From Candidatus Heimdallarchaeota archaeon (lineage in GTDB: Archaea; Asgardarchaeota; Heimdallarchaeia; Hodarchaeales; Hodarchaeaceae), in contig DXJL01000125.1 of the NCBI GenBank assembly GCA_019057635.1, forward strand, positions 1 through 14,136: a stretch of DNA of 14,136 nucleotides, given 5' to 3'. The first letter of the stretch is position 1. The number at the start of each line of letters is the position of its first letter. Positions 1 through 14,126 of the stretch are shown here, one piece after another. The notes under the pieces were generated by a model. It worked only from the letters and a program-made list of their open reading frames with translations, searched no databases and was not told the origin of the DNA. Made by a program: the position numbers and the translations under genes.

Positions 1-1
1 G

Positions 2-412
2 AAGACCCTAGTTTTAGGGGCTTTTGCGGGGATTATCCCTGATATTGATGGGATTTGGGCAATAATTAATGTTGAGACAGGAAATCCGTCACTAGACTAT
101 CTCTTTTCTCATCGTGGGTTCTGGCATAACCCAATTCTTCCACTTTTATTTGCAATTACTTCAGGGGTATACTTAGTGATAATATTCCTTCCTCGGCGGG
201 AAATGGCAAAAGATCACTTTTGGTCACTATCACCTATAGCTCTTGCATGGTTCTCTCACTTAATTCTCGATTTTGGATTTACTGCTACAAATGATATTCC
301 CGCATTAATCTTTGAATTACCATTACTTGCTGTTTACATGCTAGATCAAATATCAGCGTTCGCTATTTCCGCTCTTCTCGGATATATCCTTTGGAAACAA
401 GTTGGTTCGTAA
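2..412 (+). CDS. Membrane-bound metal-dependent hydrolase (YdjM/DUF457-like), 5'-truncated by the window edge
   Basis: The frame of the 176..412 ORF is open back to base 2: KTLVLGAFAGIIPDIDGIW...LFSHRGFWHNP...WFSHLILDF. It has the family motifs PDxD, HRGxxH and SHLxLD between hydrophobic segments. Confidence 0.8.
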   Translation, partial: KTLVLGAFAGIIPDIDGIWAIINVETGNPSLDYLFSHRGFWHNPILPLLFAITSGVYLVIIFLPRREMAKDHFWSLSPIALAWFSHLILDFGFTATNDIPALIFELPLLAVYMLDQISAFAISALLGYILWKQVGS

Positions 413-693
413 ATATATACCTAGAATTAAAAAATTCTCACGAATCAAGAATTAATTCAGTTTTTTTAACAAATACGAGAATACTCAACGTAAAGAGTAA
501 TTCAACAATTGGATAATTAATCCACAAATTCTTTAGTCTAAATGAGTTCAAATCAACAGAATGCCACAAAGAGAATATTTTAATTTCATTACTCACATAA
601 TGAAATGGGAAGAGGAAAACAATCACTTAGGATTTCAGCATTTGGAAGTTCTCAAGTACTCAATAAGTTTAGTCCATTAAAAATATTTATACG

Positions 694-735
694 AACGTCG
701 TCCATGGCTGGTTTAGATTGGAAAAGTATATGCTA
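694..735 (+). repeat. Intergenic motif copy 1 (class B left arm)
   Basis: AACGTCGTCCAT-GGCTGG-TTTAGATTGGAAAAGTATATGCTA, core at 706, directly abutting the IS left end. Confidence 0.9.
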
Positions 736-2356
736 GGGTGAGATGTGCGCGAAATTTTATTTTTCGTTGTTTTGACATTTCGGGGAAGAGTGGACTGTAA
801 TAATCCGACAATAACATGATTATTATTGAACAAGAGAGGTGAGGAGAACATTTGACCAAAAATGACCCTAACACTACTCTTGTTCGGTTATGGGGTGAGT
901 ATTACCTCTTTTTTAACTATTGTGTATGTCAGAAGCGAGTATTATAAACACTTGTACCAAAACGTCCTGTGGGATAGTTATTCACTGGAAAGAATACGAT
1001 TATTTTTTCAAAAGATTGATCCACTGTTAAAGCGGATGTATCCCATAGTGGACAAATTAAACAAGAAGAGGGGACGCCCAGTAACCAATAGATGCTTTCA
1101 ATTACGTTTTGTCATTTGGTGGAAATTTTTTGCTCCTGGACCACAAAAAAACGCGGTGGAAAGACTGAACAAGTCACCAGAACTCCAACAAATTCTGGAG
1201 GCGCCCGGAAATCCATATACCAGGGCAAGTCTCCGTCGGTTCCTCAAAGATGTGGGAGAAGAGGGATTCAGACGAATGGGTTTTTTACTTGCGGTGAAAT
1301 TGCTCAAGAAAGGGATTATTGATACCTCAAAAGTCGTGTTAGACTTTTTTCCAGTCTATTCGTATTTAAATAAGAGTAAGTGTCTAAAAATCCCAAAGTT
1401 CAATAAAAAATTAGCGAAGCAATTTTTTCAGGAATTAAGCCTGAACTACATCATTTCCAAATTTCCAATACCGCGTAGAAACTCAGCCCCATTAGTAGAC
1501 AAGTTGAAAGTCTGGATTCACCAGTATCTATGGGATATTCCCTCCAATCAACGCAATCACTATCATATATTTGGGAGAACCAATCGAAGGGAGGTACTTG
1601 GGCTTGAAAAAGGATGGAAGGCGGCGAAAACGTATCAAGATTTCTTAGATGCCTTGAAAGCCCTTCCCAACGCATCTGAGATCTAATATGTAATAGTGAC
1701 AGAGGTGGTGCGTGTACTTCGACATCTGGGAGTAACTCTTAAGAGTACTAAATATCAGCGTATAGAAGACCTTCGTTGCGTGTTCCATACTCCTCATCGT
1801 CTTAAAGATCCAATTATCACCTCAAATTATTGTGCAGCCAAAGATCAACATTTTATGGGACGAGGTGGATTGTTGGCAATAGTTCCTTCCTTAGGAATAC
1901 CACTATTCTTACAGGTAACTGCAAAGTACAAACAAAGTGAAGAATCAATTCGATCATTTCTAAAGTCGATGTCTCAACAGTATGGAGGACTTTTACGGGA
2001 GATAGAGGTATATGCGGATAGTGAGTTTGGTACCGAGGGAATTAAGGATGCGTTAAAGCGTTTACTTACGGCTACTCCCTATATCGATGTGTTTGCTCGG
2101 AGTGTCACACGATCAACATTAACTATTGAGCAAAAAAATATTCGTAAGACCGTGGAACGCGTGATTGCCCGTTTAGAAACCAATTTTCCCCTTGAACATC
2201 CTTCTGTTCTTGGAGACGACTCAGTAGCAATCCATACTCAGCTCTGCTTCCTTTGCGATTTGCTACTTGTTTCACATAACCTTTTAACAGGCAATCACTC
2301 TCACCCCCACTCCCTCTCATACATTCGGGGATAAAAGTTTTGAACACCTCTCACTC
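736..2356 (+). mobile_element. Insertion sequence of ~1.62 kb, IS4/IS5-like DDE type, with imperfect terminal inverted repeats
   Basis: Left end 736-761 is GGGTGAGATGTGCGCGAAATTTTATT. The reverse complement of right end 2331-2356 is GAGTGAGAGGTGTTCAAAACTTTTAT (18/26 identical, ungapped). The ends enclose the transposase frame. No clear target-site duplication. Confidence 0.75.
862..2334 (+). pseudogene. DDE transposase (~490 aa) interrupted by a single in-frame TAA at 1684-1686
   Basis: ORFs 862..1686 and 1696..2334 are in the same frame. Motifs are KKRGRP in the N-terminal region, VVLDFFPV (D1), VYADSEFG (D2) and RKTVERVIARL (R-x3-E, catalytic E), as in IS4/IS5 DDE_Tnp_1-type enzymes. Confidence 0.8.
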
Positions 2357-2704
2357 AGGTTTATATTAATTTACGAAATAAAAATGGAAATAATTGTTTC
2401 ATTCAAAACAACAGTACAAATTTTCTCTCAAAAGCAATCTCCATTGAGTAATAAATATAGATTTTTAAATATCTGAACAAAATCATCGAATCGAGGTCCA
2501 AATTGGTCAAATTCTAGAAATGCTTTGGCAAGTAAAGACAACAATTAGTAATAGAAACCAACATTCAATACTTGAAAAAGTTCTTTAATGGGCAAAAATT
2601 CACCACATATTTAAGTAGCAGACAAAAATGTCAATTTAAGTATCTGTACTAGGAATTAATCTTGTTCAATTGAGCTAAATAATTTAAAGATAGGAGTACA
2701 ACAA

Positions 2705-3748
2705 GTGAAACGTTGCGTTATATTAGGGACAGGGTTAATAGGACAGCAATTTGTACGGCTTTTAGATACACACCCATATTTTGAATTAACAGAAGTGGTT
2801 GCATCAGATAAATCTGAGGGTAAGTCGCTCAAGAGTAAATGGAACTTACCGTCATTTGAAATTCCAGATATGTTTGCTAATTTACAAATGAGTTCACTTC
2901 GTAATTTAGCCCCTAATAGTTATGATATAGTGTTCAGTGCACTCCCTGCATCAATAGCAAAAGAAATTGAGTTAGAAATAGCCCAGAATGGAAAACCAGT
3001 TTTCTCAAATGCTTCTGCACATCGCTATGAACCAAATGTTCCTATCTTAATACCTGAAATAAATGCTAAACATCTTGAGATCATTACACATCAAGATTCG
3101 TTTAATAATAATGGATTTATTGTCACAAACTCTAATTGTACCGTTTCTGGCCTCGCAATGCTATTAAATGAGATCAGACAAGTTCAACAAATTAAAAACG
3201 TTTATGTTAGTAGTTATCAGGCATTAAGTGGAGCAGGATTTGAAGGGCTTAAATCCATTCCTCGTGATCGGGTCATTCCGTTTATAGAAAATGAGGAAGA
3301 AAAGATTTCAATTGAAGTACGAAAAATTCTTGGGTCTGTTAATCATGACAGGATCGTTAATAATACAGAAATTGATGAAGTTTTAGCTACTTGTGCAAGA
3401 GTCCCAGTCATTGACGGTCATTTAGAAGCTGTTACAATAGAATTTAAGACGAAAATTGATCCAACGGCAATACTAGATCATTTAGAACATATTCGGAGTG
3501 ATCTCTCTTTACCAACAGCCCCGTCCAAACCGATTAAACTATTTAAAGATTTGGATCGTCCCCAGTCTACTTTAGATTTATACGATAAAACTGGAGGACG
3601 ATCAAGTGGCATGGTAGTGAGTATTAGCCCTATCAGATTTACTAAATATCATCTTAGATGTTTTTTATTAGTTCATAATACAATCCGGGGTGGAGCAGGA
3701 GGTTCTATTTTGAATGCTGAACTGGCATATTCAAGAGGATTTCTTTAA
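2705..3748 (+). CDS. asd: Aspartate-semialdehyde dehydrogenase (archaeal/fungal type)
   Basis: ILGTGLIGQ Rossmann motif, VFSALP, FSNASAHR, VPILIPEIN, catalytic NSNCT, YQALSGAG, RVPVIDGH, HNTIRGGAGGSILNAE. GTG start with AGGAG at 2692-2696. Confidence 0.97.
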   Translation: MKRCVILGTGLIGQQFVRLLDTHPYFELTEVVASDKSEGKSLKSKWNLPSFEIPDMFANLQMSSLRNLAPNSYDIVFSALPASIAKEIELEIAQNGKPVFSNASAHRYEPNVPILIPEINAKHLEIITHQDSFNNNGFIVTNSNCTVSGLAMLLNEIRQVQQIKNVYVSSYQALSGAGFEGLKSIPRDRVIPFIENEEEKISIEVRKILGSVNHDRIVNNTEIDEVLATCARVPVIDGHLEAVTIEFKTKIDPTAILDHLEHIRSDLSLPTAPSKPIKLFKDLDRPQSTLDLYDKTGGRSSGMVVSISPIRFTKYHLRCFLLVHNTIRGGAGGSILNAELAYSRGFL

Positions 3749-3798
3749 TACTCTCTTGATTGCCTAATCATCTGTAGAAATCAATTTTCCCTCCCCTG

Positions 3799-3825
3799 TT
3801 TTTTTTCTGATTATTTTTTTCTTTT
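3799..3825 (+). terminator. Oligo-T tracts, possible archaeal-type terminator of asd
   Basis: TTTTTTTTCTGATTATTTTTTTCTTTT in the gap between the convergent asd and lysC genes. Confidence 0.35.
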
Positions 3826-3836
3826 GACGCGTTTAA

Positions 3837-5243
3837 CTACTCTACTATGACCTTACTATGTGATGGTTCCATTATTCGTTTATGCAGTACTTCTAACCCT
3901 CTTTTTGCATCCTCCTTTCTTAGAACCATCGATAGATTTATTTCTGAGGCTCCTAGAACCATCATTAAAATTTTGATATTATTTTCTTCAAAAACCTCAA
4001 AAACCTGTCTAAGAACTAATGGGTTCTCACTAATACCACGGCCAACACAACATAGAATAGACCCTTTTATCTGGGTAATCATTGAAATATCCTTTCTTTC
4101 ACTTTCAGATTTAAATTCTTGGTTTAACTCATTGATTACTTTTGTTGCATCTTCAGAACGAAGAACAAAACCAATTTTTTGTTCTGCAGCAGATTGTGAG
4201 ATCATTAGTATATTGGCACCAACGCTGCGTGCACAATTAAAGGTACGAGCTGAAATTCCAGGAACACCAATCATTCCTTTTCCCAAAACATTAACTATCG
4301 AGATATTTGGTATAAGATTAATTACTTTTATGCCATTAGGTTTGGATTCTGATTTGATGAGAGTCCCAGGGTTCTCAGAATCAAATGTGTTTTTTATTCT
4401 AATTGGAATATGATTTTCAGCAGCTGGTAATATGGTCTTTGGATGAAGTACTTTTGCTCCATAATAGGACATTTCGAAAGCTTCTTCATAAGATAAATCC
4501 GTAATTTGTTCAGCAGTAGAGATCGATCGGGGATCAGTACTAAAGATTCCAGGAACATCTGTATAAATTACGATTTCTTTGACCTTAAGAAGCGCTCCAA
4601 GGATAGAAGCTGAATAATCGGATCCATTCCTACCTAAAGTAGTTGTAATATAATCTCTAGTTGAACCAATGAAACCTGTAATAACAGGAATAGTGTTTGT
4701 ATCCAAAATTGAATGTAAAGTATTTATTCTATTATTACTGACATCAAAATTAGGAGCTGCTTCCCCAAAATTATCGTCTGTGCAAATGAGATCCTCCGCA
4801 GATATGTATTTTGAGTGAATCTCTTTCGTATGCAGCATGGCATTAATTATTCTTGCAGAAAGTTTTTCCCCAAATGAAAGGATATAATCCCGAATCTTTA
4901 GACCTGATTCTCTTAAAATGATGGCTGATTTACATACGTCTTTAAGATTAACCACTTCTTCATTTAACTCAGTAAGTAATTCTGACTTTATTTCACCCTC
5001 AGGTATTAATTTATCAATGAAATCCAAATGAAGATTGAAAAATTCAAGTATGAGACTAAATACTTTCTGTGTATCCTTTTTAACTAGTAAATGGGAGATA
5101 ACCTCGAGTTTATCAGTGATTCCATTCATTGCAGAAATTACCACAATTGGATTATTATCCTGATAAGAGGAGATTATGTTTACTACTTTTTGAATACTTG
5201 ACGCGGTACTTACGGATGATCCACCAAACTTTAAAACATACAT
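3837..5243 (-). CDS. lysC: Aspartate kinase with two C-terminal ACT domains
   Basis: VLKFGGSSV, VVISAM, SFGEKLSA, TTLGRNGSDYSA, TDVPGIFSTDPR, YGAKVLHP. ACT motifs GMIGVPGISAR and GASEINLS. Confidence 0.96.
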   Translation of the reverse strand: MYVLKFGGSSVSTASSIQKVVNIISSYQDNNPIVVISAMNGITDKLEVISHLLVKKDTQKVFSLILEFFNLHLDFIDKLIPEGEIKSELLTELNEEVVNLKDVCKSAIILRESGLKIRDYILSFGEKLSARIINAMLHTKEIHSKYISAEDLICTDDNFGEAAPNFDVSNNRINTLHSILDTNTIPVITGFIGSTRDYITTTLGRNGSDYSASILGALLKVKEIVIYTDVPGIFSTDPRSISTAEQITDLSYEEAFEMSYYGAKVLHPKTILPAAENHIPIRIKNTFDSENPGTLIKSESKPNGIKVINLIPNISIVNVLGKGMIGVPGISARTFNCARSVGANILMISQSAAEQKIGFVLRSEDATKVINELNQEFKSESERKDISMITQIKGSILCCVGRGISENPLVLRQVFEVFEENNIKILMMVLGASEINLSMVLRKEDAKRGLEVLHKRIMEPSHSKVIVE

Positions 5244-5403
5244 GAAATGAAACCTCGAAGCAAATTAAAGTTTTAAACCGATATGTAAGTGCTTTTTAGC
5301 AATTTTACTGTTTCTTATAAAAGATTCACATTGAAGAAGTTGATTATTTTCAGAGATACTCCCACTTATCCTTGATTCAATCCTAGTAAAGAAGATTGAA
5401 TTC

Positions 5404-5450
5404 CGTAAAAGGCTGGTTTAGATAGGAAAAATATATACTGGGGTATATAC
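5404..5450 (+). repeat. Intergenic motif copy 2 (class A) with intact downstream palindrome
   Basis: CGTAAAA-GGCTGG-TTTAGATAGGAAAAA-TATATAC-TGGG-GTATATAC, core at 5411. Confidence 0.92.
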
Positions 5451-5714
5451 CTACAATTGAAAAAAACAAATTAGCAAATCAAACCTTTGTTAAATATTGA
5501 AAACATCGAATTTCTTTAAGAAGAGAAAAATGTGAACTTCTATTAATTACATAAAGGACTTTTGAAAGAAAAAATATTAAATTCTTTAGATACCTACCAT
5601 TTAATAAAACGAATAATAGACTCTTGTACCTATTCCAGAGAGGTTTCTCAAAATTCCGAATATAAAAATATAGTGATGGATAACCAACCAGATTCCAAGA
5701 AGGATATTAAGAAT

Positions 5715-6752
5715 ATGAAAGCGATTATGTTAACGAAATTAGGAGGACCTGATGTTTTAAAAGTTCACGATGTTCCAAAACCCACCATAAAGAATCCGAA
5801 TGATGTATTGGTCAAAATAAAGTTTTCAGGGATAAATTTCGCAGAGATACTGGCACGAAGAGGACTTTATAAGTGGGTTCCAGCAAGGAAGGGGTTTATT
5901 CTAGGGATGGAAGGAGCTGGTATTGTGGAAAAAGTTGGAACAGAGGTTGCTAATTTTAACGTAGGAGATCCAGTAATTGTAGTAAGAGGGTTTGGCTGTC
6001 ATGCTGAATATATCGTTCTAGAAGAGAAATATGTTCTTCCTGCAATTCCAAACTATACTTTAGAACAGAATGCTGCATTTACAGGGTCATTCATGACTGC
6101 CTATCTTGCACTAGTAAAGTTTGCTCGGGTTGAGTCAGGTGAGACGATTCTTGTACAAGCAGCAGCTGGAGCTTTGGGAACTGCAACCGTTAAACTAGCG
6201 AAAGCTCTCGGGTTAAAGGTTGCTGGTACAGCTAGTAATACAGAAAAAATCACCATGCTTAACAAAATGGGCATTAATTTAGCTATTAATTACTCTAAAG
6301 AAAACTTCAAAGAATCTATAATGGAATGGACTGATAACAAGGGAGTGAATGTTGTCTTAGAAAGTGTTGGAGGAGAAGTCTTCAGGGATTCTCTTCAATG
6401 TCTGTCTGCAATGGGAAGATTGATATTTGTCGGTCTAAGTAGTATTCGATTTAGCAAATTTAATCCATTGACATGGTGGTCCACATACAAATTAATTCCC
6501 AAGATTAGTTTGCTAGATATGTTAGGTAAATCTTACGGAATTCAAGCTTTCCATGCTGGACGATTACTTGATAATAATTACACAGAAATAAGAAAATCAT
6601 TTGACGATCTAGTAAATCTTGTGCAACAACATGAGATTTCACCGACAATTTCAAGAATTTTTCAACTGAATGAGATTGTGGAGGCTCACCGAATGATTGA
6701 ATCGAGAAATAACATTGGAAAAATACTCCTTAAGATAGGCAGGTCTTCCTAG
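5715..6752 (+). CDS. NADPH:quinone oxidoreductase-type MDR protein (zinc-independent, VAT-1-like)
   Basis: MKAIMLTKLGGPDVLKV, GINFAEILARRGLY, ILGMEGAG, LVQAAAGALG, SRNNIGKILL. The family-typical start is ATG 5715; ATG 5676 is an alternative, and the track's TTG 5562 looks over-extended. Confidence 0.9.
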   Translation: MKAIMLTKLGGPDVLKVHDVPKPTIKNPNDVLVKIKFSGINFAEILARRGLYKWVPARKGFILGMEGAGIVEKVGTEVANFNVGDPVIVVRGFGCHAEYIVLEEKYVLPAIPNYTLEQNAAFTGSFMTAYLALVKFARVESGETILVQAAAGALGTATVKLAKALGLKVAGTASNTEKITMLNKMGINLAINYSKENFKESIMEWTDNKGVNVVLESVGGEVFRDSLQCLSAMGRLIFVGLSSIRFSKFNPLTWWSTYKLIPKISLLDMLGKSYGIQAFHAGRLLDNNYTEIRKSFDDLVNLVQQHEISPTISRIFQLNEIVEAHRMIESRNNIGKILLKIGRSS

Positions 6753-6979
6753 TGAAGTAGGTTTTTACACCTATTATAGGTGGAGCATTGATTCAATATT
6801 TTCATTCTCAGACTCTTCCTACTCTGCTTACTGCTATTTTCTGTTTGACAATTCTCTTATGGCGGTGGTATATATCTACACCTCAATTTTCTTCAACGGT
6901 ACAAGTTACAACGACATAATATAAATAGTAGAATGATTAATTATAGATATTTAAGATCGTTAATGTATTTGCATTTCCC

Positions 6980-7019
6980 AACTTCGTAAAAGGCTGGTTT
7001 AAAATAAAAAAGTATTTAC
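6980..7019 (+). repeat. Intergenic motif copy 3 (class A)
   Basis: AACTTCGTAAAA-GGCTGG-TTTAAAATAAAAAAGTATTTAC, core at 6992, ending 4 bp from the nfi stop codon. Confidence 0.88.
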
Positions 7020-7023
7020 AAAA

Positions 7024-7734
7024 TCAATTGTATCTAAAATATTTCACAGTATCTCGAGTTAGTTTATCTGCTAATCTAATGGGCTCAGGTAAACGTTGAC
7101 GCGTATAGCGTGAGATAAGGGATGTTGCAGTCTGAATAGAGATGAGATGTCCAGGCGAAATATAAATTGGTTTGTAGATTACATTAGGAATCACTGCGGT
7201 TCCGATTTCTTGGTTTTTATACATAACAGGGGATATTTTATTTTCTAATAGGATATGCTCATCAACATTCCCTATTAAAAGTCGCTTGGCAACCCCTATG
7301 GTTGGTTTTTTTAGAGTAATTCCAAGATGAGAGGCAACACCCAGCTTGTAAGGATGAAGAATACCATTTCCATCAACCACAATAAGATCTGGTTTGTTTT
7401 GTAGTTTCTTATATGCTTCCACCAGACCTGGTGCCTCTCGGTAAGCTAGAAAGGTAGGAACATAGTCAATCTCTGGTGTGTAGATTTGGAACACATATTC
7501 TACCAATGTAAAATTAGGGACCTCTAGAACCACCATACCAGCACAAGCATCACCATTAGAAAAAAATGAAACATCACAACCCGCCACGAGGGAAATCCTT
7601 GATAGAGAAGGATGATCCTCGATAATCACTCTTTTTTGCAATGTTAATTGCTCTTTACGTAGATTTTTGAAGTGATCTACCAAATTCGGAGGAATATATT
7701 TTTCTATCCACGGTTCTAGTTCTATACACTCCAT
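7024..7734 (-). CDS. nfi: Endonuclease V (deoxyinosine 3'-endonuclease)
   Basis: VAGCDVSF, YVPTFLAYRE, VDGNGILHP, GVASHLG, PTIGVAK, PIYISPGH, RLPEPIRLAD. Confidence 0.96.
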   Translation of the reverse strand: MECIELEPWIEKYIPPNLVDHFKNLRKEQLTLQKRVIIEDHPSLSRISLVAGCDVSFFSNGDACAGMVVLEVPNFTLVEYVFQIYTPEIDYVPTFLAYREAPGLVEAYKKLQNKPDLIVVDGNGILHPYKLGVASHLGITLKKPTIGVAKRLLIGNVDEHILLENKISPVMYKNQEIGTAVIPNVIYKPIYISPGHLISIQTATSLISRYTRQRLPEPIRLADKLTRDTVKYFRYN

Positions 7735-7850
7735 GTTTTTTCTACTTAGATTTTAATCTTATAAGTAAATGTCTAAATTCCCAAGAATTAGGCTCATTTG
7801 ATCCACAAGTTTGTTCAAATACATATTTCAGTTTTCCTAATCTCGTACTC

Positions 7851-7899
7851 TGTCGTAAAAGGCTGGTTTAGATAGGAAAAATATATACTAATGTGTATA
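7851..7899 (+). repeat. Intergenic motif copy 4 (class A)
   Basis: TGTCGTAAAA-GGCTGG-TTTAGATAGGAAAAA-TATATAC-TAAT-GTGTATA. Bases 7854-7889 are identical to 5404-5439 (36 bp). Confidence 0.92.
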
Positions 7900-8080
7900 A
7901 GCAGATGAGTAGAATAAATCGTAATCTCTAGATAGACCATATGGGACATTTAGACAGGGTTATAGAATTTAGAGCTTATTTTCGGTGAACAGTTCAATTT
8001 CATCGCTGAAGGAATATTTACAGGCGTATTGATATATAAAGTTAAACGGATCTGAGCAATCAAAACTAAGGGTGAATGCG

Positions 8081-8872
8081 ATGAGAAATCCTGAAATTGC
8101 TTTAAATTCTGTTTTATATGAAAAAACAGACCTAATTGCTACCATTACTATTAATCGGCCTGATAAACGAAATGCTTTACGTATGGAAGAATTTGATAAG
8201 CTTATCAAATTTATTAAAGACGCTGACTCTGATGAATCTGTTCATGTCATTCACATCAATTCTGAGGGCGAAAAAGCGTTCTCTGCTGGATTGGATTTGA
8301 ATATGTTGCAGCAATTAGCGGCCTCTCCTGAAAATATTCCTCGTCTTCTTGAGTATGGATTTGGTTTAGTAAAAACGATGTTGCTAGCAAAAAAACCAAT
8401 TGTTGTGCAAATTCAAGGTCCTGCGGTTGCGTGGGGTGCAATTATATGTTTAGCTGCAGATTTTGTAATTGCAGGTGAAAATCCTAACACATTTCTTTCG
8501 CTCCCTGAAATTGATGTAGGATTGTTTCCCGCAACAGGAGCTCTAACCATGGCATTATTGAATTCCGGATTTAGACGCTCCAAAAGAATTCTTATGGTTC
8601 CAGAACGTCTATCCTTAGATGATGCCGTAGAATTAGGAATTATCACTCGTAGATGTCCTTTAACTAACCTCCCCGAGGACACGTTATCATTCTGTGAGGT
8701 TCTTGCCAAAAAACCTCAATCTATCCTTATTCCAATAAAAGCGTTGATAAATCGTTTTTCTTTAAAAGATCTCGATTATTATTTTACTAAGGAGACTGAA
8801 GCCTTTAATTTATCTATGGCTGGAGAAACAGAAAAATTTAACGAATTTATACGAATCCTATGGGAGAATTGA
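8081..8872 (+). CDS. Enoyl-CoA hydratase/isomerase (crotonase) family protein
   Basis: ATITINRPDKRNAL, AFSAGLDL, KPIVVQIQGPAV, AADFVIA, LPEIDVGLFP. ATG 8081 is preceded by GGGTGA; GTG 8072 is an alternative start. Confidence 0.92.
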   Translation: MRNPEIALNSVLYEKTDLIATITINRPDKRNALRMEEFDKLIKFIKDADSDESVHVIHINSEGEKAFSAGLDLNMLQQLAASPENIPRLLEYGFGLVKTMLLAKKPIVVQIQGPAVAWGAIICLAADFVIAGENPNTFLSLPEIDVGLFPATGALTMALLNSGFRRSKRILMVPERLSLDDAVELGIITRRCPLTNLPEDTLSFCEVLAKKPQSILIPIKALINRFSLKDLDYYFTKETEAFNLSMAGETEKFNEFIRILWEN

Positions 8873-8956
8873 TTTTATATTTAGATCTGTAAACGTATTT
8901 CAACTTCTGTCGGAATATGTAACTAAAATTCTACTAGAAAAAAGTGGAGACTTAAA

Positions 8957-9045
8957 TTCACCATTTTGAGACTAATAATAATTGCTTTCACATATAATGA
9001 AATACTATAGGATAAATCATCACGTACGTCGTCCGTGGTTGGTTT
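8957..9045 (+). repeat. 89-bp extended repeat ending in degenerate motif copy 5 (class B)
   Basis: Ungapped match to 12008-12096 (70/89 by hand count). Ends ACGTCGTCCGT-GGTTGG-TTT, core at 9037. Confidence 0.85.
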
Positions 9046-9342
9046 TATTTTTAGGAAATTGCCTTTTTGATGGAATAGAAAGGATTTTTCTAGGAATTTT
9101 CCAGTTAGGAGTCATAGATCGTTGGAATGAAAGATTTCACATAGGAATTTACCAAACGAGTGTCATAAAATAGAGTATTGATCATAATTAGAGAATTGAA
9201 TCCACACCTATCAGAAATGAATTAATTAGTAATGGCTTGAAAAAGTTATAAATGAAGTAGTTTTAATCAATTAAATCGAAATTGCTTCTCTTGATGACAG
9301 AAGAAAGCAAGGAATTTATCAGATAAGGGAGACATAACAAAA

Positions 9343-11847
9343 TTGAAAGTCTCTGAAATTAAGGAATTGATCCAAAGAGGGAATTACTATCAAGCCTTAG
9401 AAGCGATAGAGGATTTAAGCCCAAGTGATAAACTAAATGGTTTAATTCTTAAAAGCAGAATTTTTGAGCAGAAGGGAGAGGTAGAAAAATCACTTATAAT
9501 TGCTGAGCAAGCATTAAAAATGAGTACAACTCTAAGTGAGAAGCTACAGCAATTACAAGCAGAAATTTGTCGTGGTTTCGGATTTCTTGCTCTACAAAAA
9601 TTGACAAGATTAGAAGAAACTATTCTAAGAGGAGAAGCACTCTTACTTTCTTTAGTAAACGAATCAACATTAGATCTAAAGAAAAGTGAAGCAGATCTCA
9701 AATATCTTAAGGGTTTCTTATTTTTTATGAAAATTGAAAGAGATATTGCACAAGATTATCTTAATGAGAGTTTGGCAATCAGGAAAGAAATTATTGATGA
9801 ACAAGGAATTATAGAATCATATACAGCCCTTGGAATGCTTTATTTATTATTATATAAAAAACCAGTGACTGCTATTGACAATTTTAAAAGAGCAATGGCT
9901 TTTATGGAGAGTTTGGGGACTAAAACAATTTTTACATATTCATTGAGACAAATAATGAGTTATGACGAGGTACTCGCCCTTATATCAGTACCAGAAGACC
10001 AACAAGCCTTTTTACCTGATTATACACGGAATATCTGTCCTGAAGTTTGGAAAATTACAAATCAGTTTCAACAAAAATTAAGTCAAAATTTGCTAAGAGT
10101 ACCATCTGAACTAAAGAAGGAATTTCTTCTCGCTTTAGATAGTTACCAGAAATACAATGAATTGTTTAATATATTCACATCTTTTTCACCAATTTATCAA
10201 GATGTTGGATGGCATCTTCATGTCAAAGGTGATCTTGTCCGTGCTTTACACTTTTATAAAAAGAGTCTAGAACTCTTAAAGAATATAGAAGAGAATAAAC
10301 CAGAAACAGGACGTCTTTTAAGCACTCTGGGAACCATTTATGCTGATTTAGGGAAGTTAGATCTTGCTCTTGAATATTTCAAGAGTAGTATAAATTTAAA
10401 TCGTGAAATAGACTGTAAAATAGCAATTGCTTATAATTTGAAGGAAATTGCTAAAATAAATTCATTGAAAGGAGAACTAGATCTAGCTATGGATAATATT
10501 AATCAAAGTTTTAACTTATTCTTGGTATCTGACTGGCGAGATGGCATAAATCGATGCTATTTGGTGTTAGGGGTCATTTGGAAGCATATGGGAAAACTAG
10601 ATCTAGCTAGAAGTTTTTTAGAAAAAGGGTGGGTGCAGCGTAATCAATATGGTGGGATTTTTCCCCTTTTTGATTCGTATTATCTCTATCATCTGATTTT
10701 ACTTACTCAAGAACGAAATGATGCAGAGAACGCAGTTCATTATCTTAGTCAATTGCACAAAATACAACAGAGTCATGAATCTAAGACGATTACCTTAAGA
10801 TATCACTTTTGTGAAGCTATTGTTCTTATGATGAGCAATAGGACAATTGACAAATTCCTCGCTCAACACAAATTACGTGAAATTCTAGAAAAACACACAG
10901 AAAGGTTACTCTCTACTAATCCTATATTCATTATGGTGATGTTAAACCTTTGCGAGTTATTGATGCTGGAATTAAAAGTCTCTAGCAAACAAGAAGAAAT
11001 ATTTCAGGAAATTTCAGCATGGATTGGAATATGTCGACTACAAGCAGAATATTTCAATCTACTACCACTACTTGTTTCTTCATTTATTATTGAATCTAGA
11101 GTAAATATGGTCAAGAATGACTTGAAACATGCTCAAATACTTCTTAATAAAGCACAAATAATTGCAGAAGAGAAAAAGTTAGGAAATTTGATAGAAAAAG
11201 TGAAGAAAGAAAAAAAAACACTGGAATTGTATGAATGGGGAAGTCGTAAAGAAGATTCCATTCAAGAGCGTATAACGCAAGTTAACTTGGAAGAATATTT
11301 CAATGAAGCGAAGAAATTACCTCAAACTTGGGTACAGAGTACCACGATGCAACCATTACCCGAAGATCCTGTTATGTTCGTTATAGTTACTGATGGGGGA
11401 TTAACTCTTTTCACAAGAATATTTGACCAAAATTACTCTAAAAAAGTTGGTTTGATCGGACAAATCTTAGTAGCTTTCGAAATGTTTAGTCAAGAAGTTT
11501 TTTCAGCCTCAGCTGATCATGTGGTAATGGGAGATCTGCGGTTGGTTATGCAGACGCGGGGTAATTTAAGATTTGCATATGTTTTTAGAGGAGAATCCTA
11601 TCCAGCTATCAGTAAACTAATTCAATTAATAAATAAACTTCAGTTAAGACGTGATTTATGGGAAAAATTAGAGGATATCATTATTACAGGTGTTGCATTA
11701 AGTTCAGGTGAGAAAGCTGAAATAAATGGTGCTCTTAATGATATTATTTTTTCAACTAGCGCTAACAACACTGGATGGTTCCACAGTCCGTATCTCAAAT
11801 ATACTGAAGAAGCCCGACAATTAGTTGAAACTTGGGGAACAAAATGA
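9343..11847 (+). CDS. Large tetratricopeptide-repeat protein with a putative C-terminal longin-like domain (Asgard-type architecture)
   Basis: TPR consensus segments such as LSTLGTIYADLGKLDLALEYFKSSI, VGWHLHVKGDLVRALHFYKKSL and LGVIWKHMGKLDLARSFLEKG. The C-terminal alpha/beta domain begins PEDPVMFVIVTDGGLTLFTRIF. TTG start preceded by GGGGAG. Confidence 0.85.
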   Translation: MKVSEIKELIQRGNYYQALEAIEDLSPSDKLNGLILKSRIFEQKGEVEKSLIIAEQALKMSTTLSEKLQQLQAEICRGFGFLALQKLTRLEETILRGEALLLSLVNESTLDLKKSEADLKYLKGFLFFMKIERDIAQDYLNESLAIRKEIIDEQGIIESYTALGMLYLLLYKKPVTAIDNFKRAMAFMESLGTKTIFTYSLRQIMSYDEVLALISVPEDQQAFLPDYTRNICPEVWKITNQFQQKLSQNLLRVPSELKKEFLLALDSYQKYNELFNIFTSFSPIYQDVGWHLHVKGDLVRALHFYKKSLELLKNIEENKPETGRLLSTLGTIYADLGKLDLALEYFKSSINLNREIDCKIAIAYNLKEIAKINSLKGELDLAMDNINQSFNLFLVSDWRDGINRCYLVLGVIWKHMGKLDLARSFLEKGWVQRNQYGGIFPLFDSYYLYHLILLTQERNDAENAVHYLSQLHKIQQSHESKTITLRYHFCEAIVLMMSNRTIDKFLAQHKLREILEKHTERLLSTNPIFIMVMLNLCELLMLELKVSSKQEEIFQEISAWIGICRLQAEYFNLLPLLVSSFIIESRVNMVKNDLKHAQILLNKAQIIAEEKKLGNLIEKVKKEKKTLELYEWGSRKEDSIQERITQVNLEEYFNEAKKLPQTWVQSTTMQPLPEDPVMFVIVTDGGLTLFTRIFDQNYSKKVGLIGQILVAFEMFSQEVFSASADHVVMGDLRLVMQTRGNLRFAYVFRGESYPAISKLIQLINKLQLRRDLWEKLEDIIITGVALSSGEKAEINGALNDIIFSTSANNTGWFHSPYLKYTEEARQLVETWGTK

Positions 11848-12007
11848 TCACCTAACCTTTTGTGCTGGTTAACGTTGGTTTTATCCGTTTTTTAATTAAA
11901 ATTTATTTAATCTAATATCAATAAACGTTGGATAAGCGACATTGGTGCTCAAGAAGTATTAATCTAGTTCAAAAGATAATGGACTTATTCCTTTAAAAAA
12001 ATCTAGG

Positions 12008-12117
12008 TTCACCATTTTGAAACCTAGTATAATTGCATTCACACATAATGAATTGCTAAAGGATATATTAGTGCAAACGTCGTCCATGGCTGGTTTAGAT
12101 AAGGATAGTATATACTT
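12008..12117 (+). repeat. Extended repeat plus motif copy 6 (class B)
   Basis: TTCACCATTTTGA...CACATAATGAA...AACGTCGTCCAT-GGCTGG-TTTAGATAAGGATAGTATATACTT. Bases 12076-12100 are identical to 694-718 (25 bp). Confidence 0.9.
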
Positions 12118-12147
12118 ATAGTGGGGAAAAAGAAAATCAGACTGTAA

Positions 12148-12543
12148 TCACCAAGATTGGGTATTAACTTGAGGAATTTTTTCAAAATGACGAGTGTTCT
12201 TTGTTACTACTGTAGAAATTCCTCGTGAAATCATGGTGCCAGCAATTAGAATATCAGCTCCCCCTATCATTTCGCCTTTGGCTCGTAAATCTGCTTCTAT
12301 TATAGCAGATCTAGTTGCAGCAGCTAAATCAAAATCTAGTATAACTATCCTACTTAAAAGGTTATTGCGAACTTTCAGTTCCATTTCCGAGTTTGTTGCT
12401 CCAAAAGCTCCTACTAAGAATTCATGAGCTACGATTGTATTTGTTACATGAGGACCTTCTTTGTCCAAATCATCTAAAAGTGTTTTAGCTGGAGCATGTT
12501 TTCTTATAACATCAATTAGAAATGAAGTATCTAGAAACTTCAT
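12148..12543 (-). CDS. vapC: PIN-domain toxin, VapC family
   Basis: MKFLDTSFLID, HEFLVG, IGGADILIAG, VVTKNTRHF. The likely start is ATG at 12543, 4 bp after the antitoxin stop; the track's 12630 start overlaps the antitoxin. Confidence 0.93.
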   Translation of the reverse strand: MKFLDTSFLIDVIRKHAPAKTLLDDLDKEGPHVTNTIVAHEFLVGAFGATNSEMELKVRNNLLSRIVILDFDLAAATRSAIIEADLRAKGEMIGGADILIAGTMISRGISTVVTKNTRHFEKIPQVNTQSW

Positions 12544-12547
12544 GGTT

Positions 12548-12766
12548 TTATCGTCCTTGGAAAAAATTCTGACGTCTCTGTTCAATTTCACTAAGTTCTT
12601 CTTCATACTCACTCTTAGATTTAGTTCCAACTCCCCAATAATCTTTTAAATTTCCAAATAAACCAGAAATCCGTAATATTGTGTCTGAAAAAGACTCTCC
12701 TTCCAATTGTAATGATTTTAATGCGTGATAAGCTGCTTCCTTCACTGTGATTGTTTTCGATACCAT
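12548..12766 (-). CDS. vapB: Archaeal VapB-type antitoxin (DUF217-like)
   Basis: KTITVKEAAYHALKSLQLEGESFSDTILRI motif. 72 aa, directly upstream of the PIN toxin. Confidence 0.9.
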   Translation of the reverse strand: MVSKTITVKEAAYHALKSLQLEGESFSDTILRISGLFGNLKDYWGVGTKSKSEYEEELSEIEQRRQNFFQGR

Positions 12767-12796
12767 GTTTATGTGTATGTTTAAACTTATATAAAA
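12764..12796 (-). promoter_or_regulatory. TATA box and hexamer repeats of the first vapBC operon
   Basis: The minus strand reads TTTTATATAA-GTTT-AAACAT-ACACAT-AAACAT-G. The TATA box lies ~21-30 bp upstream of the ATG, which suggests a leaderless transcript. Confidence 0.5.
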
Positions 12797-12815
12797 GATT
12801 TTCTAGATTATTATC

Positions 12816-12857
12816 AACTCCGTCAAAGGCTGGTTTAGATTACAAAAGTATATACTA
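12816..12857 (+). repeat. Intergenic motif copy 7 (class A variant)
   Basis: AACTCCGTCAAA-GGCTGG-TTTAGATTACAAAAGTATATACTA, core at 12828. Confidence 0.9.
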
Positions 12858-12889
12858 GGGTGAGATGTGGGCGAAATTTTATTTTTCGT
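12858..12889 (+). mobile_element. Solo left-end remnant of the same IS
   Basis: 31/32 identical to 736-767 (GGGTGAGATGTGSGCGAAATTTTATTTTTCGT). No transposase or right end follows it. Confidence 0.75.
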
Positions 12890-12956: not shown

Positions 12957-13199
12957 ATGGCAAAAAACATTGCTGTTTCAAATGAGATCTACAAAGTATT
13001 GAATCAGCTCAAATTAGGAAATGAAAGTTTTTCTGACGTGATAAAGAGGTTATTACCTCCAAAATCGATGTTGTCAGATATAGCCGGAACTAAAACGTTC
13101 AGCTATCAAGAATGGAGTGAAATTCAAAGTGCTTTCCAAGATCAGAGAGCATTGGATATTGAACGAACGAAAAAACTATTAGAAAAAATGGTTGATTAA
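12957..13199 (+). CDS. vapB: Archaeal VapB-type antitoxin (DUF217-like)
   Basis: KNIAVSNEIYKVLNQLKLGNESFSDVIKRLL motif. Coupled to the downstream PIN gene. Confidence 0.9.
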   Translation: MAKNIAVSNEIYKVLNQLKLGNESFSDVIKRLLPPKSMLSDIAGTKTFSYQEWSEIQSAFQDQRALDIERTKKLLEKMVD

Positions 13200-13611
13200 T
13201 GTGTGGTTAGCAGATACGACTTTTATCATTGATTTGGTCAATAATGACGAAGGAGCAGTGAAAATGGCGCAAATAATAGATAGAATGCACTCAGTCGTTT
13301 TCATATCAGCTATTACGATCCAGGAATATCTAAGAGGTATTTATTATTTATTTGGAAATAAACTAAATCAAATCGACAAAAAATTGTCAAAAGCTGAAGG
13401 CGATCTAGCCCGATTCAGTGGACTAGAGCTAAATTATAATGTAGCAAAAGCTGCTGCTAAGATCGACGCTGATCTAACTCGCAAAGGAGAACAGATAGGT
13501 TATGCTGACGTTTTAATAGGAGCAACAGCTCAATTCTATCAATTGACAATTTTAACACGAAATGATAAACACTTCCAAAAAATTCCTGATTTAAAAATTG
13601 ATATCTATTAA
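13192..13611 (+). CDS. vapC: PIN-domain toxin, VapC family
   Basis: WLADTTFIIDL, SAITIQEYLRG, IGYADVLIGATA, ILTRNDKHF. Start is either TTG 13192 or GTG 13201. Confidence 0.93.
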   Translation: MINVWLADTTFIIDLVNNDEGAVKMAQIIDRMHSVVFISAITIQEYLRGIYYLFGNKLNQIDKKLSKAEGDLARFSGLELNYNVAKAAAKIDADLTRKGEQIGYADVLIGATAQFYQLTILTRNDKHFQKIPDLKIDIY

Positions 13612-13631
13612 ATGGTTCAAATATCTGTATT

Positions 13632-13669
13632 TGTCGTAAAAGGCTGGATTAGATAGGAAAAGTATATAC
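13632..13669 (+). repeat. Intergenic motif copy 8 (class A)
   Basis: TGTCGTAAAA-GGCTGG-ATTAGATAGGAAAAGTATATAC, core at 13642. Confidence 0.92.
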
Positions 13670-13857
13670 ATATTGGTAATTCTAGTAATGTGCCACAGGA
13701 ATCACAATGAAAGGCTGTTAAAGGGTTCGGGGCATGTTTAACAGTATATACTTAGGTATATAAATGGTCTATCTCTTTTTTTATACTCAGACGGAACAAA
13801 GATTGCAATGATATCTTGTTCCTTGTTATTTCAAACAATTATAACGGTGAAAAAAAA

Positions 13858-14061
13858 GTGACAACTGAAGAAATTGGTAAAAACGTCAAAGTAACCATTG
13901 ATGAGAATATTTTAACAATAAGGATTGATTTAACTAAGACATTTGGAAAGTCTGGTAGTGGTAAATCGACCATTATTGCTACTACATCAGGTAATAAGGG
14001 AATTGGTAAAGAAGATATTAAATTAGGATTAAATTGCTATACTCCTGTAAAGAACGATTAA
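13858..14061 (+). CDS. Small hypothetical protein (~67 aa, beta-rich)
   Basis: GTG 13858 is preceded by GGTGA. Sequence KNVKVTIDENILTIRIDLTKTFGKSGSGKSTIIATTSGN...LGLNCY resembles, from recollection only, a small uncharacterised family; not verified. Confidence 0.75.
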   Translation: MTTEEIGKNVKVTIDENILTIRIDLTKTFGKSGSGKSTIIATTSGNKGIGKEDIKLGLNCYTPVKND

Positions 14062-14090: not shown

Positions 14091-14126
14091 AACTCCGTAA
14101 AAGGCTGGTTTAGAAAAGGAAAAAAT
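14091..14126 (+). repeat. Intergenic motif copy 9 (class A)
   Basis: AACTCCGTAAAA-GGCTGG-TTTAGAAAAGGAAAAAAT, core at 14103. Confidence 0.9.

Follow-up and report, generated by a model that had tools for sequence, protein, structure and literature searches.

A repeated site with a six-base core at which gene cassettes appear to be exchanged in a Hodarchaeales genus

The window analyzed here, 14,136 nucleotides long, is the entire contig C97 of a Candidatus Heimdallarchaeota genome (G000; Hodarchaeaceae; 92% complete). It carries nine co-oriented, intergenic copies of a short site, which separate cassettes whose cargo is unrelated from one cassette to the next. Judged by the flanks of 265 such sites, the site halves were shown to assort at a 6-bp core, GGCTGG in most copies, and different cores to partition the cassette pool. 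Site-specific exchange at the core is very probable on this evidence. The explanation as a whole, in which a tyrosine recombinase site serves cassette exchange at its core and the housekeeping recombinase XerA acts on it from afar, seems to us probable. The Hodarchaeales have been proposed, with others, as the closest relatives of eukaryotes, which lends interest to the ways in which they gain and reorder accessory genes.

Positions are counted from the first core base (position 0), the left arm being −12 to −1. The site set comprised 265 cleaned sites from G000, its relatives, and 17 metagenome loci, and covers the contigs behind most, not all, of the pattern matches reported below; the sequences all come from metagenome assemblies. 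Of the original 268 sites, L192:2, L112:20, and L029:57 were removed as artefacts, and one site in the cleaned set, L113:6077, remains one base out of register. The 12-bp left arm has the 11-mer consensus ACTTCGTAAAA and may bear some likeness to a Cre/loxP arm. The core is GGCTGG in class A (244 sites) and CGCACA in class B (20 sites), the whole hexamer being replaced as a block. Both classes use the same left-arm 12-mers, four of which are present in exact form in both, and the same right-arm triplets; intermediates are few. A third core, TGCCAT, was seen with intact arms at L020:7599, 58 bp after a class A site. The right arm comes in two forms. R1 consists of TTTAGAT, a variable triplet, AAAA, and a tail of the form GTATATAC-N4-GTATATAC, while the tail-less R2 reads ATTAACAC and was found at 69 sites, in 16 of 21 relatives and none in G000. 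The first tail 8-mer is kept in 148 of 179 R1 sites versus 0 of 70 R2 sites. The outer left-arm type is independent of the right-arm class (p 0.84) and the inner type marginally linked to it (p 0.044). When the sequence was reversed as a control, neither the 1.9 Mb of loci nor the genome gave any match to the R1 models, so the R1-site repeats are not due to chance; the three control matches in the 1.9 Mb of loci all came from the short R2 models.

Sites were paired by homologous 80-bp flanks lying outside the site, after pairs driven by insertion sequences (IS) had been left out and identical junctions merged. Twenty-nine pairs shared the upstream flank only, 31 the downstream flank only, and none both. 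The left arm assorted with the upstream cassette and the right arm with the downstream cassette. In upstream-sharing pairs the left arm was kept, since only 3 to 5 of the 29 differed at −10, −9, −8, and −1, and 9 at −4 (background, 0.35 to 0.60); 3 differed at +5. Beyond the core, differences were found in 14 of 29 pairs at +6, 13 at +10, and 16 at +11 (background, 0.51, 0.48, and 0.55). Downstream-sharing pairs behaved in the opposite way: their left arms differed at background level (20 of 31 at −9, 20 at −4, and 10 at −1; background, 0.55 at −4 and 0.35 at −1) and their right sides were linked, with differences in only 4 of 31 at +10 and 3 at +11. The right-arm class differed in 16 of 29 upstream-sharing versus 2 of 31 downstream-sharing pairs (10 versus 1 for strict R1 versus R2). 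In all 20 independent matchings, the likelihood of a single switch was maximal between +5 and +6; at most 7 log units were lost across the core, and 11 were lost at −1 and at +7. R2 helps to bracket the switch between 0 and +6, the extent of the GGCTGG hexamer, and the right edge of the hexamer gives the best fit. This agrees with an earlier note, made from the letters of the window, which had proposed that the sites are hybrids produced by strand exchange at the core.

Individual junctions illustrate the switch. Copy 6 of the window and L086:890 have the flank, left arm, and core in common and then continue with R1 and R2, respectively, as do copy 7 and L016:5123. Furthermore, window positions 7851 to 9045 match a segment of L086 from site to site at 96.7% identity, with different neighbors on both sides; in L086, this cassette follows cassette 7. 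None of 63 flank-sharing pairs crossed between core classes, and neither did any of 47 independent pairs (p ~0.001); the single locus scored as having mixed core classes owes this to a weak match. A site in the form of a dif starting at +6 was also considered and ruled out, as positions +6 to +15 go with the downstream flank.

The note had further claimed that the left and right halves assort independently. Across 158 sites this held (Mantel r −0.07, p 0.89), while the nine copies in the window are too few for such a test (r 0.15, p 0.19). Column linkage across the core was absent (mean z −0.1, 1 of 48 above 3), compared with 6.0 within the left arm. Once the comparison that it had suggested, of left and right sides over more copies together with a map of the switch point, was extended to 265 sites, neither congruence of the two sides nor a switch away from the core was seen. 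Its left-arm groups (copies 1, 5, and 6; 4 and 8; 3, 7, and 9, with copy 2 near the last group) and its copy-to-copy matches are correct to the letter, and so is the count of GGCTGG in eight of nine copies, copy 5 having GGTTGG and a decayed right half. Two of the matches are nevertheless uninformative about the exchange. Copies 2 and 4 do have 36 identical bases (5404-5439 and 7854-7889), a match that cannot place the switch because it extends 7 bases to the left of the core. Copies 1 and 7 have a right half and an IS end in common (699-767 versus 12821-12889; 91%), and the IS end, offered as a sign of crossover, reflects IS targeting instead. Indeed, five of five IS left ends come 4 nucleotides (nt) after a GTATATAC-like 8-mer, three of them within sites, and a sixth case, in run X5, has the same register at a stand-alone palindrome.

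Several observations fit a clean exchange at the core poorly. The absence of pairs sharing both flanks is partly built in by the merging of identical junctions. Linkage between the outer and inner left arm is also weak (r 0.09), and for this reason low linkage alone was not used to place the switch. When pairs were restricted to independent ones, before removal of the three artefact sites, the left-arm contrast was strong (p 6e-5) and the right-class contrast reached only p 0.058. Close downstream-sharing pairs still differed at 24% of the triplet positions +13 to +15, and three of four class B pairs differed at +6; because of these differences, some conversion between sites probably occurs as well. 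Finally, many homologies stop within a segment or are inverted (27 of 164 hits), a pattern suggestive of site decay or of rearrangements of another kind.

The visible conversion and the AT-rich, TATA-like R1 tail would also suit a portable promoter or operator, with cassettes shuffled through short-homology recombination between its copies. This explanation is already disfavored, and we consider it improbable: R1 and R2 are alike little beyond +9 and yet replace each other after an identical left arm from precisely +6 on, and classes A and B share arms but never cassettes. Moreover, the next gene lies on either strand (71 plus and 77 minus after R1; 26 plus and 34 minus after R2), and the palindrome is not a genome-wide motif, six of its eight best copies being inside sites. 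For these last two reasons, the R1 palindrome is unlikely to be a cassette promoter. The palindrome GTATATAC-N4-GTATATAC is, on the other hand, the most symmetric part of the site and the place where the IS inserts, and G000 has two resolvase-domain genes, as would fit an exchange point in the palindrome, with either a serine recombinase or the transposase of the resident IS as the cutting enzyme. The switch map already contradicts this, since positions +6 to +31 go with the downstream flank; in addition, none of 70 R2 sites has the palindrome and the array-rich genome G005 gave no resolvase match. We give this reading very little credence. Contigs break at the sites, and in metagenome assemblies the hybrids might be chimeras formed at a short repeat. 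The chance of this seems minimal: the longest exact run across the core between two class A sites of G000 is 36 bp, R1/R2 swaps have only about 18 bases in common, and seven junctions recur identically in a second dataset. In run X1, probably the source sample, contigs continue across sites 1 and 5 in the arrangement of the window and are interrupted at other sites.

Our preferred explanation, exchange at the core, can be put as follows. The site would be a double-stranded tyrosine recombinase site in which the 12-bp left arm and a right arm enclose a 6-bp exchange core. A cassette would extend from one core to the next, with a right arm at its start and a left arm at its end, and every site would for that reason be a hybrid. 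Strand exchange may need matching cores, which would keep the two array types apart; according to the accessible part of PMC8371274, tyrosine recombinases at dif likewise use two arms around a 6-bp center that must match. With sites in direct orientation, cassettes could be excised as circles and reintegrated at another site with the same core. An accessory protein may bind the palindrome of the R1 tail, and housekeeping XerA would act on the sites from its distant locus. In a bolder form, which we put forward tentatively, the single housekeeping XerA of Hodarchaeum has become a cassette integrase of long direct-repeat arrays, the core serves as an address that defines two insulated pools (GGCTGG and CGCACA), and the right arm, either R2 without a tail or R1 with its accessory palindrome, determines which sites donate and which accept.

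The candidate enzyme was approached through the tyrosine recombinases of the genus. The only PF00589 match in G000 is XerA, on contig C157 (41294-42202), away from the array. It scored 270 bits against the archaeal XerA model NF040815 (XerA_Arch; cutoff, 220) and 165 bits against TIGR02249 (cutoff, 265), and is thus no IntI; its best solved relative is Pyrococcus abyssi XerA. Orthologues were found in 18 of 21 relatives and not in G009, G012, and G021, which are 71, 74, and 80% complete. XerA is the only tyrosine recombinase common to the array genomes, and G000, G001, G006, and G011 have it alone. The recognition helix has xRS in all 19 listed XerA proteins of the genus, with K in P. abyssi XerA; xRS is a XerC-type motif according to the accessible part of PMC2958812. 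The left arm agrees with a published XerC arm in as many as 9 of 11 positions, and the left-arm matrix places the Acinetobacter XerC arm (as given in the accessible part of PMC12907356) above all but 1.2e-4 of random 11-mers. On balance, sequence evidence of this kind leads us to lean somewhat toward XerA as the enzyme. Two of its orthologues, L244 and L245 (G014:C5 and G013:C16), have an insertion of about 100 amino acids (aa) before the catalytic domain, and their genomes have 0 and 1 good sites. This association is only a hint because the two genomes are kin.

The assignment to XerA meets a number of difficulties. The arm comparison was post hoc and one of 24 tests. L and R1 form a poor inverted repeat (4 of 11) and L and R2 a weak one (p 0.025), and with the geometry set correctly no likeness to a Xer arm is seen in either R1 or R2 (p 0.15 to 0.75); R1 (+6 to +16) has 8 of 11 positions in common with the dif arm of P. 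abyssi only in direct, not in inverted, orientation relative to the mapped core (p 3e-4). Sister genera have XerA (51 to 54%), and sites were not found in them. No circular cassettes were seen in the contigs of four runs, although contigs cannot show their absence; the one backward joint (13669 to 12124) covers only 31 letters and fits a variant right arm. A location at the replication terminus was dropped: each genome has four cdc6 hits, sites in the single-contig genome G010 lie in three separate places, and skew sampled in 27 windows was noise. Relative to the best cdc6 match, sites lie at 48.5% (G010) and 44% (G008) of the contig. Apart from one weak candidate, no Pyrococcus-like dif was found in G000.

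Some of these difficulties would be met by a dedicated or mobile-element tyrosine recombinase, unassembled or visiting, acting on the same site with the same crossover. The arms are asymmetric, unlike published XerA sites, XerA is present in sister genera that have no sites, and such an integrase could be unassembled because the genomes break up at arrays. Two other tyrosine recombinase families, patchy in the genus and absent from G000, do exist, and one is represented by a pseudogene within an array contig (L028; G004:C160:1569-2169). However, no second recombinase is common to the array-rich genomes, no site lies beside either of the other families, and viral contigs gave no site matches. 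We regard a dedicated enzyme as rather unlikely. Unlinked to arrays, G002:C77 contains a frameshifted fragment (L061/L063) that by eye resembles an integron integrase.

The sites are confined to a narrow lineage. A 20-base pattern matched 18 of 21 genomes of the same genus, with one control match. In a species-level collection, 17 of 18 matches bore the titles Hodarchaeota, Heimdallarchaeota, or Ca. Hodarchaeum, the remaining one being an "uncultured archaeon." A class-wide pattern search was positive for 15 of 83 genomes, all of them from 1 of 18 genera, a Hodarchaeales genus. Beyond this genus, core-agnostic matches occurred at about control frequency; of 20 that were fetched, 19 lay inside open reading frames (ORFs) of more than 100 aa and none had a tail. 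A relaxed search of sister genera returned scattered matches with two mismatches and no arrays. Within G000, class A sites are also present on C142 (five) and C207 (four) and sites with a different core on C144 (three), C128, C20, and, weakly, C190. Copy number reaches about 20 per genome, neighboring sites are a median of 1.4 kb apart, ORFs contain 8 of 268 sites, and 57 of 61 loci with at least two sites have them on a single strand.

Two further features of the arrays were noted. Upstream of the class A array in G005:C163 and G006:C78, site-free accessory genes are preceded by a block syntenic with G000:C150. This arrangement suggests that the locus is conserved and that one end of it is older and has decayed. 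Gene-less units of 58 to 77 bp between two sites were found at L006:1295, L011:7315, L012:12734, L085:3881, and L093:1514. Several are homologous across genomes, and such a unit, made up of the R1 arm, the palindrome, and the left arm, is a cassette reduced to its minimum.

The layout of the window is given in the table below. Its IS sits between the two 8-mers of the site 1 palindrome, with unequal 4-nt flanks (TAGG and TCAG), and contigs of four runs carry a different letter at its in-frame stop. The same IS was found at L006:6356, in L007 and L008, and in run X5; short left-end remnants also occur. Outside the array contigs, no asd or aspartokinase genes were found in the assembly. Contig C207 has second copies of asd (89%) and YdjM (96%), with the cassettes ordered differently. 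The ends of cassettes 4 and 5 are homologous over 89 bp (8957-9045 and 12008-12096; 79%), and this common cassette tail also precedes sites in L009, L012, and L086. An Rfam search gave no matches.

Sites, cassettes, and insertion sequences in the window, 5' to 3'
Feature	Coordinates	Strand	Details
Cassette 0 (partial), YdjM membrane protein	1-693	+	96% copy on contig C207
Site 1	694-737	+	Left arm 694-705, GGCTGG 706-711, R1; palindrome tail broken by IS
IS, DDE_Tnp_1 transposase	738-2354	+	Two ORFs (862-1686 and 1696-2334) sharing a frame that holds one stop
Second 8-mer of site 1 palindrome, displaced by IS	2359-2366	+	
Cassette 1 cargo	2705-5243		asd 2705-3748 (+), aspartokinase 3837-5243 (-)
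Site 2	5399-5450	+	Core 5411-5416, R1, complete palindrome
Cassette 2 cargo, zinc-binding dehydrogenase	5562-6752	+	
Site 3	6980-7019	+	Core 6992-6997, R1 partly decayed
Cassette 3 cargo, endonuclease V	7024-7734	-	Other neighbors in L007 and L011
Site 4	7849-7900	+	Core 7861-7866, R1
Cassette 4 cargo, enoyl-CoA hydratase	8072-8872	+	
Site 5	9025-9049	+	Core GGTTGG 9037-9042; placed by eye, under the matrix threshold
Cassette 5 cargo, 834-aa TPR protein	9343-11847	+	
Site 6	12076-12119	+	Core 12088-12093, R1
Cassette 6 cargo, VapB-PIN toxin-antitoxin pair	12148-12766	-	Next site is R2 in L016 and a different R1 in L012
Site 7	12816-12859	+	Core 12828-12833, R1
30-bp remnant of left end of site 1 IS	12860-12889	+	Same register as at site 1
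Cassette 7 cargo, second VapB-PIN pair	12957-13611	+	Immediately before cassette 4 in L086 and L094
Site 8	13630-13669	+	Core 13642-13647, R1, A at +6
Stand-alone 8-4-8 palindrome, without arm or core	13744-13763	+	Target of the same IS in run X5
Cassette 8 cargo, 81-aa ORF	13816-14061	+	No Pfam or NCBIfam match
Site 9	14091-14119	+	Core 14103-14108, right half decayed, contig end

If the bolder form of the explanation is correct, integron-like gene capture would have a third route, with biosynthetic cargo (asd and aspartokinase) and in a lineage close to eukaryotes. The analysis provides a gene cassette system with a precise crossover point that can be tested and with a named candidate for its enzyme. 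The two naturally insulated core classes and two right-arm classes are ready substrates for experiments on homology dependence and on directionality, and a compact tool for recombination could come from them. No description of the system was found in the literature searched, which included few subscription papers and no supplements or figures; the accessible parts of PMC8813620 and 10.64898/2026.05.29.728689 do not mention it.

The layout is closest to that of sedentary integrons and of CALINs, archaeal ones included, in which, according to the accessible part of PMC9668308, co-oriented sites separate 1- to 5-kb cassettes of changing order and toxin-antitoxin cargo is present, as here, and which are enriched in Asgard archaea. 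This enrichment, the layout, and the IntI-like fragment in G002 would be compatible with a CALIN whose unusual attC sites are served by a distant IntI. We nevertheless think this most unlikely. The hairpin of attC is missing: arms and core do not fold in 60 sites (mean dG −0.5 kcal/mol, z +0.4 and +0.3), only 1 of 60 falls below z −2, and only the R1 tail folds weakly. G000 has no IntI, although CALINs may lack it. Moreover, unlike in integrons, cargo genes here are in both orientations, often multigene and metabolic, and exchange appears to need core identity.

Archaeal XerA/dif, as described in the accessible parts of PMC2958812 and PMC8371274, has the same geometry of arm, 6 bp, and arm, and xerA is unlinked to the site, as in G000. 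The conserved flanking inverted repeats proposed there as partner-binding sites can be likened to the tail side of R1. Archaeal dif differs in having one or two copies per chromosome, compared with tens here that bound cargo, and a near-perfect 11-bp inverted repeat, compared with 4 of 11 for L/R1 and a weak match for L/R2. A terminus location, too, is unlike the situation here, where it is not supported.

The mode of action has its nearest counterpart in the dif/pdif modules of Acinetobacter. In the accessible parts of PMC12907356 and PMC9455709, many sites with 6-bp centers flank accessory modules, toxin-antitoxin pairs included, and the recombinase is the housekeeping XerC/XerD acting from elsewhere, as we propose for XerA. 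IS elements home to those sites, comparable to the five of five IS left ends found here 4 nt after the R1 8-mer, and a XerC-type arm lies by the center, as the left arm does here (up to 9 of 11, post hoc). Unlike Acinetobacter with its XerC and XerD, this archaeal system has one Xer gene and no XerD-like arm (p 0.15 for R1 and 0.55 for R2), and it has two right-arm classes, one with a palindromic tail. Whereas pdif sites occur as C/D and D/C with varied centers, almost every site here is in direct repeat, and the core is constant within an array. In summary, by these comparisons the system appears to work like Acinetobacter dif modules and to be laid out like an integron, while lacking defining features of both.

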